Of a DNA stretch of 64,000 bases, positions 1,430-2,698 are shown one piece after another. The translations under genes were made by a program, and so were the position numbers. The notes beneath the pieces are model-generated. The model ran no database searches. It was not told where the DNA came from and saw nothing but the letters and a program-made list of their open reading frames with translations. Within the stretch, counting starts at the first letter, position 1, and each line of letters begins with the position of its first letter. The DNA lies in assembly GCA_934183255.1 (NCBI GenBank), contig CAKPSD010000001.1:321351-385350 (forward strand), written 5' to 3'. This DNA is from an uncultured Bacilli bacterium (GTDB lineage: Bacteria > Bacillota_I > Bacilli_A > RFN20 > DUOF01).

Positions 1430-1549
1430 TTAGTCTTTAGAGTGACTATCTTGCCATGAATCGTTAGCCCATGGTGTATGTGACCAAGAATCTTTTCCAG
1501 ACATTTCTAATACTTTATGATATTTCATCATTATTCTTAATCCGTTCAT
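1430..1549 (-). CDS. 39-aa peptide MNGLRIMMKYHKVLEMSGKDSWSHTPWANDSWQDSHSKD; candidate radical-SAM substrate (RiPP precursor-like)
   Basis: Hand-translated; not in the ORF track (too short). Its ATG overlaps or abuts the TAA of the upstream rSAM gene (TAAATG). The GAGGAGGTG SD is embedded in the rSAM 3' end. The C-terminal half holds three Trp in repeated D-S-W-x-[H/D] / P-W-A-N-D contexts. A terminator follows. Confidence 0.5.
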   Translation of the reverse strand: MNGLRIMMKYHKVLEMSGKDSWSHTPWANDSWQDSHSKD

Positions 1550-2635
1550 TTATTTCACCTCCTCTGCAAATTTATTCACTATTTCCTTAACATGGTTATA
1601 AAAACGAATATATGCTTTACAGAAATAATTTTTTCCATCTACATCATTCCTGTGGCATCCTGTTCTACACACAGAATATACTTCACATTTTTCGCAAGTA
1701 GGTAAAACAAGTTTCACTTGATTCATTTTGTCTATATATTTTTGACTATTATATATTTCTTCTATCTCATCTGTTACTATATTACCAAATGGTTTTGCAT
1801 CACTAATATCATCATCACAAAAGAATAAATCACCATTAGTAGAAACAGTTAAATACTGTCCACATCTTTTCCTATAATTAAGGTTACATACATTTTGTCC
1901 TTCTGCTCCCAAGCAATTTTGAATTGCATAATCAAATTCTCTAATATTAAGTTCATAGTCTCCATAAAAATATAAATCAAAAAATTCGATTAGGAAGTCT
2001 GCTAGCACATCATTATCTACAGTTGCTCCTTCTCCAAAACATCTTAATAGTCCTACAGTATGAATATTATTGTTTTTATAAAATTCATATAATTCTTTTG
2101 CTTTTCCTTTATGGGCATTTGTTATAACAGTTAATACACCGCATTTCACTCCTGCCTCAGTTAACTTTTTATATGTGTTTAGAGAATTTTCTGTAATACT
2201 TGTATTTTTATTGCATGATTTTCTACCCATTTCATTCAAGTATGCTGGACCATCTATACTAATTCCAACATTTATTTTTTCCTTTACTAATAAATCAATT
2301 AATTTATCAGATACAAATTGGCCATTAGATTGAATAGAAAATGAATATGATATTTTATCATCATATTTTTTTGACACACTTTTTACATAGTTTATTAATT
2401 TTTTTAATTCCTCTATTGGAAATAAAGTAGGTTCTCCACCATGAAGACAAAAATCAACACCTAAATAATCATTATTATAATTATATTCAAAAGTTTTATC
2501 TATGGTTTTTTTCCATACTTCTTCAGGCATTATTTTATTAAATGCATTTGATTTTAAAGTTCTTTTGTAGTAGCAATATGCACAATCTAAATTACATAAA
2601 TTAGTTAATTTCATTATAGGTTGAAAAGTTTTCAT
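1550..2635 (-). CDS. radical SAM / SPASM-domain enzyme of the anaerobic sulfatase-maturating enzyme (anSME) family
   Basis: N-terminal CNLDCAYCYY (CxxxCxxC) directly at the N-terminus, with no RRE domain. Conserved anSME-like blocks GGEPTL, IQSNG, VGISIDGP. C-terminal Cys clusters (CGQYLTVSTNGDLFFCDDD; CEKCEVYSVCRTGC) are typical of SPASM auxiliary clusters. SD AAGGAGAA upstream of the ATG at 2635. Confidence 0.8.
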   Translation of the reverse strand: MKTFQPIMKLTNLCNLDCAYCYYKRTLKSNAFNKIMPEEVWKKTIDKTFEYNYNNDYLGVDFCLHGGEPTLFPIEELKKLINYVKSVSKKYDDKISYSFSIQSNGQFVSDKLIDLLVKEKINVGISIDGPAYLNEMGRKSCNKNTSITENSLNTYKKLTEAGVKCGVLTVITNAHKGKAKELYEFYKNNNIHTVGLLRCFGEGATVDNDVLADFLIEFFDLYFYGDYELNIREFDYAIQNCLGAEGQNVCNLNYRKRCGQYLTVSTNGDLFFCDDDISDAKPFGNIVTDEIEEIYNSQKYIDKMNQVKLVLPTCEKCEVYSVCRTGCHRNDVDGKNYFCKAYIRFYNHVKEIVNKFAEEVK

Positions 2636-2662
2636 ATAATAATTCTCCTTGTGTTTTTTTAT

Positions 2663-2691
2663 ATTATATCTTAATTTATTTTCATTTGCAA
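2663..2691 (-). promoter_or_regulatory. sigma-A-like promoter for the rSAM-peptide mini-operon (TTGCAA-17-TATAAT)
   Basis: On the minus strand: TTGCAA (2686-2691), a 17-nt spacer, then TATAAT (2663-2668), about 25 nt upstream of the rSAM SD. Confidence 0.45.
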
Positions 2692-2698
2692 ACTTAAA

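Follow-up and report, generated by a model that had tools for sequence, protein, structure and literature searches.

A 64,000-nucleotide stretch of contig CAKPSD010000001.1 from an uncultured Bacilli bacterium (hereafter, the window) carries a gene for a radical S-adenosylmethionine (rSAM) enzyme with a SPASM domain, directly followed by a gene for a 39-amino-acid peptide rich in tryptophan and histidine. This locus raises the question of what the enzyme acts on: the adjacent peptide, a sulfatase, or some other molecule. A previous reading of this DNA, made from its letters alone (the sequence-only reading), had proposed that an enzyme resembling anaerobic sulfatase-maturating enzymes (anSMEs) and its coupled Trp/His-rich peptide form a module of the kind that makes RiPPs (peptides built by ribosomes and modified after translation). 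Comparative analysis bore this out, since the small open reading frame (ORF) lay beside the enzyme gene in all related loci. We estimate a probability of about 0.9 that the pair is a precursor and its maturase, forming a minimal RiPP module. By analogy with characterized systems, the enzyme would probably install triceptide-type three-residue cyclophanes at Trp, to which we assign a probability of about 0.6.

A translationally coupled gene pair

The two genes, their junction, and the Shine-Dalgarno sequence embedded at the end of the enzyme gene were all read directly from the DNA, where the sequence-only reading had placed them. The features of the pair are:

1550-2635, minus strand: predicted radical SAM/SPASM peptide maturase gene, 361 aa (ORF read from the sequence)
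1430-1549, minus strand: ORF of the 39-aa peptide, MNGLRIMMKYHKVLEMSGKDSWSHTPWANDSWQDSHSKD (read from the sequence)
1493-1549, minus strand: putative leader part of the peptide, residues 1-19, MNGLRIMMKYHKVLEMSGK (from an alignment of nine peptides)
1430-1492, minus strand: putative core part, residues 20-39, DSWSHTPWANDSWQDSHSKD, plus the stop codon (from the same alignment)
1556-1564, minus strand: Shine-Dalgarno sequence GAGGAGGTG of the peptide gene, within the final rSAM codons (read from the sequence)
2645-2650, minus strand: Shine-Dalgarno sequence AAGGAG of the rSAM gene, 9 nt 5′ of its ATG at 2635 (read from the sequence)
2663-2691, minus strand: promoter-like TTGCAA-17-TATAAT (10 of 12 matches), within the 63 bp that separate the stop of pnuC from the start of the rSAM gene
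1350-1385, minus strand: intrinsic-terminator-like hairpin (approximately 1356-1385) and then U6 (1350-1355), closing the pair (from RNA folding)

The junction is gapless: the TAA stop codon of the rSAM gene (1552-1550) is followed immediately by the ATG of the peptide gene (1549-1547), giving TAAATG at 1552-1547. The element at 2663-2691, previously taken for the pair's own promoter, is present, but promoter-like sites in this AT-rich region were not enriched over shuffled sequences (24 versus 21.3 ± 4.0), so the promoter is plausible by position only. The pair may be transcribed by read-through from pnuC, which lies on the same strand. The hairpin 3′ of the peptide gene, proposed earlier as a rho-independent terminator, is a stable structure with its run of six U residues (−16.7 kcal/mol; z = −3.5; 0 of 200 shuffles equally stable), but a consensus terminator scan called no terminator there. 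A 10-nt tandem direct repeat, two copies of CGGAAAACTA at 1376-1395, provides two alternative 5′ arms for this putative terminator. A scan of window positions 1-8000 found no Rfam RNA family at E ≤ 0.1.

Co-occurrence of enzyme and peptide across loci

Homologs of the enzyme were searched for among 5.8 billion proteins. A small tier (P0001-P0023) was recovered at 31-63% identity, and ordinary anSME-like proteins formed a separate tier at ≤29%. At all 10 loci examined from the enzyme side, a small ORF encoding an aromatic-rich peptide with an Asn-Gly (NG) leader adjoined the enzyme gene, either downstream or upstream. The loci, with the identity of each rSAM enzyme to that of the window, the position of the peptide gene, and the peptide, are:

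L004: 63%; downstream, overlapping; MNGLKIMASLMRARFESSDSNWSHTPWANDSWQDNYENRNS
L005: 45%; downstream, abutting; MCNGERLIEQYVCEEQDTSDTCDNWNHTAWANDNWSDSHRP
L086/L087, L088, and L089: 36-38%; downstream; MNGLD(V/I)IE…SWHESWPDGWRDSHR
L006 (a Desulfitobacteriaceae metagenome-assembled genome): 37%; upstream; …SNGERII…GWNESWPDGWRDSHK
L090: 36-38%; upstream; …MNGLDIID…QWHESWGDSWTDSHR
L091: 35%; downstream; …TNGEIVLERL…HDLNYAKHYNDWDKGR
L092: 32%; upstream; …GNGLAFVKLI…SAWYDYQEWHQYWNDCR

Gene order flips between loci and adjacency is retained. A search for co-occurrence starting from the peptide, a check that the sequence-only reading had put forward, gave the same result: a profile built from the peptide alone found 21 clusters in the same protein collection, and peptide-side searches led back to the same rSAM family at 34-38% identity. 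Counting enzyme-side and peptide-side loci, the small ORF and the enzyme gene were co-located at approximately 20 loci. One peptide (P0151) occurs on more than 100 contigs; the gene after it encodes an rSAM enzyme of 357 aa, 35% identical to that of the window, and this bare two-gene module is present in two distinct genomic contexts. Another (P0141) has nearby an arginase-family gene, an rSAM gene whose product is 38% identical to the window enzyme, and a second rSAM gene.

Nucleotide searches added further loci. A degenerate DNA pattern for cores of the W-H-E-S-W-P-D-G-W type matched eight metagenome loci, six of which carried a member of the rSAM family; the contigs of the remaining two stop just past the peptide. 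The degenerate pattern for the window-type core had no match in JGI metagenomes. Scanning genome contigs with the rSAM family alignment gave at least 600 matches; among the matches listed, most were true anSME-like loci at ≤30% identity, and the Desulfitobacteriaceae locus was the sole family locus. None of the related family loci examined showed a sulfatase gene. Homologs consistently next to sulfatases, together with a small ORF not conserved in synteny, had been named beforehand as one outcome that would speak against a RiPP module. The homologs do not lie next to sulfatases and the ORF is conserved, which favors the RiPP reading.

Evidence that the peptide gene is real

Judged by its sequence conservation, the small ORF is a real coding gene: it adjoins the enzyme gene in all loci, it contains invariant residues, its codons have changed synonymously, and searches with the peptide alone recovered the same enzyme family. 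Seven columns are invariant in the nine-peptide alignment (N2, G3, W22, W27, D30, W32, and D34). The window, L004, and L005 differ by synonymous changes at conserved core codons (TCA/TCT, CCA/CCT, AAC/AAT, and GAT/GAC). In L004, L005, L087, and L088, a GGAGG-type site occupies the equivalent spot within the rSAM 3′ end; L089 has a weaker GGGAG. A spurious ORF was considered as an explanation and was rejected. The sequence-only reading had expected that annotation would miss the peptide; in fact, gene callers had already called it in public records (L001-L003), and it is present in NCBI, ENA, and Logan.

The leader starts with N2-G3 and continues with the hydrophobic x-x-(I/V)(I/L). This N-terminal motif, NG-x-x-(I/V)(I/L), and an aromatic-rich core typify the family, and the NG-type motif is repeated internally in longer homologous peptides. 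The core of the window peptide contains three Trp-X-X units, W22-S-H24, W27-A-N29, and W32-Q-D34, with Trp codons at 1484-1486, 1469-1471, and 1454-1456, respectively. W-S-H is confined to the window subtype, and other family members have W-H-E or W-N-E instead; homologous cores are built from W-H-E, W-P-D, and W-R-D units. The residue at i+2 of the second Trp is N or D across the nine aligned peptides. Within the window's species cluster the core DSWSHTPWANDSWQDSH is constant, whereas tail and leader vary. D-S-H near the C-terminus is conserved in most family peptides and is absent from those of L004 (…WQDNYENRNS), L091, and L092, in which the Trp/aromatic-X-(D/N/E/K) units are kept. A close variant of the window peptide on an 895-bp ENA contig (P0130) has a Cys in its leader (MNGLRILMKYCKCIEMSDKDSWSHTPWANDSWQDSHSR) and ends in …DSHSR.

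Position of the enzyme among radical SAM/SPASM families

The 361-aa enzyme carries the rSAM motif C14-x3-C18-x2-C21 (CX3CX2C) and retains all eight auxiliary-cluster cysteines in two C-terminal groups, C250/C258/C273 and C314/C317/C323/C327/C339, with a CX2CX5CX3C...C motif at residues 314-339. Because Pfam yields only the domains Radical_SAM, Fer4_12, and SPASM, a RiPP recognition element (RRE) is absent, as had been claimed; in the structural model as well as in the Pfam scan there is no added N-terminal domain, and the rSAM motif begins at residue 14. Scores against NCBIfam models, with the model cut-offs in parentheses, are:

anSME, TIGR03942: 176.6 bits (equivalog cut-off 349.45)
DynA, NF041298: 149.7 bits (450)
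YhhB, NF041707: 136.9 bits (445)
GrrM/OscB, TIGR04261: 124.8 bits (310)
DarW, NF041300: 114.5 bits (650)
AmcB, NF041718: 112.4 bits (425)
anSME, NF010308: 107 bits (484)
anSME, NF010321: 106.4 bits (441)
FxsB, TIGR04269: 99.8 bits (370)
DarE, NF038005: 81.1 bits (650)
XyeB, TIGR04496: 63.7 bits (450)

The comparison with rSAM subfamily models that had been suggested for this enzyme thus placed an anSME model on top, as anticipated, but no model cut-off was reached and the enzyme fell into no named family. After anSME, the next neighbors are cyclophane or cross-link maturases (DynA, YhhB, GrrM/OscB, DarW, AmcB, and FxsB). All 22 members of the family alignment matched the same NCBIfam models at E ≤ 1e-10 (best, 3.4e-88).

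Against solved structures, the family profile scored 252 bits with anSMEcpe and 162 bits with the triceptide synthase ChlB. An AlphaFold (AF2) model of the enzyme (mean pLDDT, 93.2) was compared with known folds by Foldseek and gave TM scores of 0.83 to anSMEcpe, 0.84 to ChlB with its leader (9GM3), and 0.59-0.63 to the RRE-bearing SuiB. In the profile alignment, C250, C258, and C273 fall on anSME residues C255, C261, and C276, the reported ligands of auxiliary cluster I in anSMEcpe, and D274 falls on D277, its proposed catalytic base. By these scores and fold matches, with no cut-off reached, the enzyme belongs to no named family and is an RRE-less SPASM enzyme of anSME architecture that stands between the anSMEs and the cyclophane/daropeptide maturases.

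Proposed chemistry

Triceptides are defined by a cross-link from an aromatic residue to a β-carbon (Cβ) on aromatic1-X2-X3 motifs (PMC11499958). OscB joins Trp-C7 to Cβ of Asn or Asp, XncB joins Trp-C6 to Cβ of Arg or Asn, and YxdB joins Tyr-C3 to Cβ of Asp; W-x-N and W-x-D are proven substrates of OscB/XncB (PMC11002830). The window pair has the traits of such systems, namely, an RRE-less anSME-like fold and an adjacent precursor with conserved aromatic1-X2-X3 motifs. Length differences between core subtypes fall between the W-X-X units (WSH-TP-WAN-DS-WQD versus WHE-S-WPD-G-WRD), so that the three-residue units stay intact.

From the triceptide definition, the OscB, XncB, and YxdB examples, and the intact W-X-X units, we infer a cyclophane mechanism. 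The RRE-less enzyme would bind the N-terminal leader directly through the NG-x-x-hydrophobic motif and would cleave SAM reductively. The 5′-deoxyadenosyl radical would take the Cβ hydrogen from the residue at i+2 of a Trp (His24, Asn29, or Asp34), and the carbon radical would then attack the indole ring, which would be re-aromatized by deprotonation and by oxidation via the auxiliary [4Fe-4S] clusters. The predicted outcome is a triceptide-type product with at most three three-residue cyclophanes, on W-S-H, W-A-N, and W-Q-D, which would together lower the mass by as much as 6 Da. The analysis shows the architecture of the enzyme, a genuine and conserved peptide gene, its constant pairing with this enzyme family, and the conservation of Trp and Asp positions; the type and position of the cross-link, the recognition and removal of the leader, export, and any biological activity are inferred.

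Several points weigh against this chemistry. The family is nearer in sequence to anSME than to ChlB, and it falls short of the cut-off for each named cyclophane synthase family. The invariant D30 is also at i-2 of W32, D-x-W and E/T-x-W units are conserved as well, and at X3 the first unit has His in some peptides and Glu in others. A model of three cyclophanes leaves the strongly conserved C-terminal D-S-H without explanation, and no protease or exporter gene adjoins the pair. The product is predicted; none has been observed.

Alternative explanations

It is possible, if unlikely, that the same precursor and maturase carry out other chemistry. The link might run the other way, from an Asp, Glu, or Thr at i-2 to the Trp (D-x-W); the rings might comprise four or five residues; the bonds might be ether or C-N, as in daropeptides or dynobactin; or the D-S-H Ser might undergo an anSME-like two-electron oxidation to an aldehyde, which would likewise amount to −2 Da. 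D30 is invariant, D20-S-W22 and D30-S-W32 are both D-S-W, and because D-x-W units are conserved, a reversed topology agrees with the conservation nearly as well. The whole anSME Cys set is retained in the enzyme, as is the Asp aligned with D277, and its top scores are against anSME models; DynA, which forms both C-C and C-N links, ranks second among the models; and D-S-H is conserved in most of the peptides. On the other hand, D-S-H is missing in three peptides in which the Trp/aromatic-X-(D/N/E/K) units persist, no aromatic-X-aromatic daropeptide motif is conserved, and the sets of residues at i+2 (N/D; D) are chemically more coherent than those at i-2 (D/N/S/Y; T/E). We consider it distinctly doubtful that the family installs an unseen cross-link pattern, for example Trp joined to Asp or His with mixed or reversed topology by what is still in essence an anSME that retains full ligation of its two auxiliary clusters. 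The product would then be a His/Asp-rich, possibly metal-binding or signaling peptide of uncultured low-G+C gut bacteria, and the Arg of D-S-H-R tails in sibling clusters would be the target of a canonical PF00491 ureohydrolase working as a peptide arginase.

That the enzyme is a genuine anSME serving a sulfatase encoded elsewhere in the genome, with the small ORF incidental, is hardly credible. Its best NCBIfam, PDB, and fold matches are anSMEs, and all anSME cluster ligands are conserved, but its score is half of the equivalog cut-off (176.6 versus 349.45 bits) and true anSMEs are at most 29% identical to it, in a separate tier among the matches. As the sequence-only reading had noted, the 64-kb window contains no sulfatase: no C/S-x-P/A-x-R signature occurs in its ORFs of at least 250 aa, and no PF00884 match was found among scanned ORFs of at least 400 aa. 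The small ORF, moreover, is conserved, translationally coupled, and always beside the enzyme gene. The score, the missing sulfatase, and the conserved peptide partner largely refute this explanation. We also regard it as very unlikely that the small protein is a partner, chaperone, or regulator of an enzyme that acts on another molecule. This would fit the lack of an observed product, a module without protease or exporter, and a peptide gene downstream of the enzyme gene, which is less usual for precursors. The peptide is nevertheless conserved as RiPP precursors are (a short recognition motif, then a spacer that varies, then a conserved repeat-like aromatic core), adjacency is maintained while gene order flips among loci, and sibling loci carry added tailoring enzymes typical of RiPP clusters.

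Comparison with known systems

The precursor and maturase proposed here resemble the triceptide systems, whose enzymes forming cyclophanes of three residues (3-CyFEs) include XncB, OscB/GrrM, MscB, YhhB, HaaB, HtkB, ChlB, and FxsB. The likeness lies in an RRE-less anSME-like rSAM/SPASM enzyme, a short precursor beside it, and several repeated aromatic-X-X motifs in one core, and the enzyme model superposes on ChlB at TM 0.84. The window enzyme differs in being below every curated cut-off for the named 3-CyFE families (XyeB, GrrM/OscB, YhhB, FxsB, and AmcB), and its precursor gene is downstream of the enzyme gene and translationally coupled to it. In the alignment, nothing in ChlB corresponds to C250, C258, and C273, whereas the window enzyme has all eight auxiliary cysteines and is closer to anSME in sequence. 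No paper searched contained the NG leader motif or the D-S-H tail that the family conserves.

The window enzyme and anSMEcpe (PDB 4K36-4K39; TIGR03942) are alike in length, domain layout, and fold (TM 0.83; profile, 252 bits), and both have CX3CX2C, two fully ligated auxiliary clusters, and an Asp beside the third auxiliary Cys. The anSME reaction begins with abstraction of a Cβ hydrogen from a peptide residue, which is also the first step proposed for the window enzyme. Unlike an anSME, the window enzyme has neither a sulfatase partner nor a C/S-x-P/A-x-R motif to act on and is paired instead with a dedicated small peptide.

The daropeptide maturases DynA, DarE, and DarW are likewise SPASM rSAM enzymes that cross-link short Trp-containing cores, and they have been reported to have a common origin with 3-CyFEs (PMC12912966). 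The window enzyme is under all their cut-offs, its peptide family lacks the conserved aromatic-X-aromatic motif of daropeptide precursors, and its host is low-G+C and Bacillota-affiliated rather than a proteobacterium. In contrast to darobactin clusters, no dar-type transporter genes lie near the pair. Streptide-type RaS-RiPPs (StrB, SuiB, WgkB, and WprB) share small operons and an rSAM/SPASM enzyme that links Trp to an aliphatic side-chain carbon. Their enzymes, however, bear an N-terminal RRE (PqqD-like), which the window enzyme lacks, and their operons are ordered differently; SuiB is a weak structural match (TM about 0.6).

Tailoring genes in sibling clusters

In some sibling loci, a PF00491 arginase/ureohydrolase-family gene adjoins the rSAM gene and often overlaps it:

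L005, 2811-3572: PF00491 gene
L086, 2079-3026: PF00491 gene
L088, 2097-3014: PF00491 gene
L089, 2282-2995: PF00491 gene
L090, 1343-3004: PF00491 gene
L096, 6013-7665: PF00491 gene
L105, 3082-4704: PF00491 gene
L101, L102, and L107, ends of the loci: PF00491 gene fragments

All loci with a peptide ending in D-S-H-R(x) carry the gene; the window, with its tail DSHSKD, lacks it, as do loci with the tails DSHG, DSHH, and DSHK. This distribution suggests that an enzyme of canonical arginase fold may tailor the tail Arg to Orn. That fold is not the one of the known OspR-type peptide arginases, which are assigned to pfam12640 (PMC12703449). In L090 and L096, the arginase domain is inside a 550-aa protein, with a faint HD-domain match in L090.

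Other additions were also observed. Some larger sibling clusters have a second, non-SPASM radical SAM gene (317-321 aa) directly after the family rSAM gene, and L090 has an additional rSAM/SPASM gene upstream. A YcaO-nitroreductase fusion is encoded 0.7 kb upstream of the peptide gene in L096 and L097, and L092 carries an extra rSAM gene and a GT61 glycosyltransferase gene. Extra genes in these clusters were placed at:

L090: 1-968 and 4067-5032
L096: 8821-9774 and 2184-4307
L092: 438-2691

Genomic context of the pair

Upstream of the rSAM gene and on the same strand are pnuC and, further on, genes for an epimerase, NAPRTase, and NrtR; a gene for a DEDDh-type exonuclease lies downstream of the peptide gene. 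The pair had been described as a compact two-gene island. Bare two-gene modules do exist elsewhere, but here the whole five-gene block epimerase-pnuC-rSAM-peptide-exonuclease varies. In a related genome (L098; GCA_944363575.1; NAPRTase 83% identical), NrtR-NAPRTase comes directly before a Mur ligase gene, and in the window's species the same Mur ligase comes after the exonuclease; the segments compared are approximately 359-4404 of the window and 9434-9911 of L098. Because the related genome joins NAPRTase straight to the Mur ligase, the block is, from this comparison of sequences, a variable accessory segment. The clostridial affiliation that the sequence-only reading had supposed for the host was not confirmed: the closest NAPRTase homologs were 81-99% identical, and the named ones, at 58-60% identity, were spread among Bacilli, 'Tenericutes', and Ruminococcaceae metagenome-assembled genomes. 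Neighboring features of the window are:

2699-3376, minus strand: pnuC, upstream of the rSAM gene
7837-21202, minus strand: run of ABC-transporter genes
7837-9855, minus strand: 672-aa protein without Pfam matches
9869-12280, minus strand: ABC-FtsX fusion
13099-14931, minus strand: ABC-2 permease
17518-21202, minus strand: two ABC exporter half-transporters
4584-4727, plus strand: small ORF, rich in Lys and Asn and containing a Cys cluster (…KVKKCCCESKYDPKPFDANK…), convergent with the NAPRTase gene with an 8-nt 3′ overlap
44118-45623, plus strand: second radical SAM protein of the window, 501 aa

The ABC-transporter run, on the strand of the pair, begins approximately 5 kb upstream; there is no nearer exporter and no link to the pair. 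The start of the exonuclease gene is TTG 1345 in the ORF list, which overlaps the T-run of the terminator, and ATG 1288 (309 aa) in public calls. Since ATG 1288 is preceded by TAGGAG and an extended −10 element (TGTTATAAT), the exonuclease gene probably has its own promoter. The ORF at 4584-4727 was called as a gene in L001 and is conserved in L098 at 9427-9552 (…NKKCDCEDKYGPKPFKAINK…); it probably encodes a real small protein. The second radical SAM protein, with the domains Radical_SAM and Radical_SAM_C and an rRNA-methylase-like domain at its C-terminus, has no relation to the pair.

Novelty and significance

Cyclophane and triceptide RiPPs made by RRE-less anSME-like rSAM enzymes acting on W-x-N and W-x-D have been described (PMC11002830 and PMC11499958), and a catalog of approximately 3,900 putative triceptide pathways exists (PMC11499958). 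With thousands of such clusters known, the pair extends a known class and opens no new one. The expectation that the module was undescribed therefore held for the family, which appears uncharacterized, but not for the class. The peptide family is very rare, and no curated enzyme or peptide model covers the family. None of the papers searched contains the family core sequences in its main text; the family may already sit, unnamed, in a published similarity network.

For the cyclophane-RiPP field, the pair would offer a clean minimal system that can be tested directly, with no accessory proteins, two genes in approximately 1.2 kb, and a substrate of 39 aa. In sequence, the enzyme stands where sulfatase maturases border on cyclophane synthases, and could thus reveal how substrate and reaction specificity diverged within this anSME-like clade of SPASM enzymes. 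Both the product and the part it plays in its uncultured host (G+C content of the window, 25.7%) would be new.

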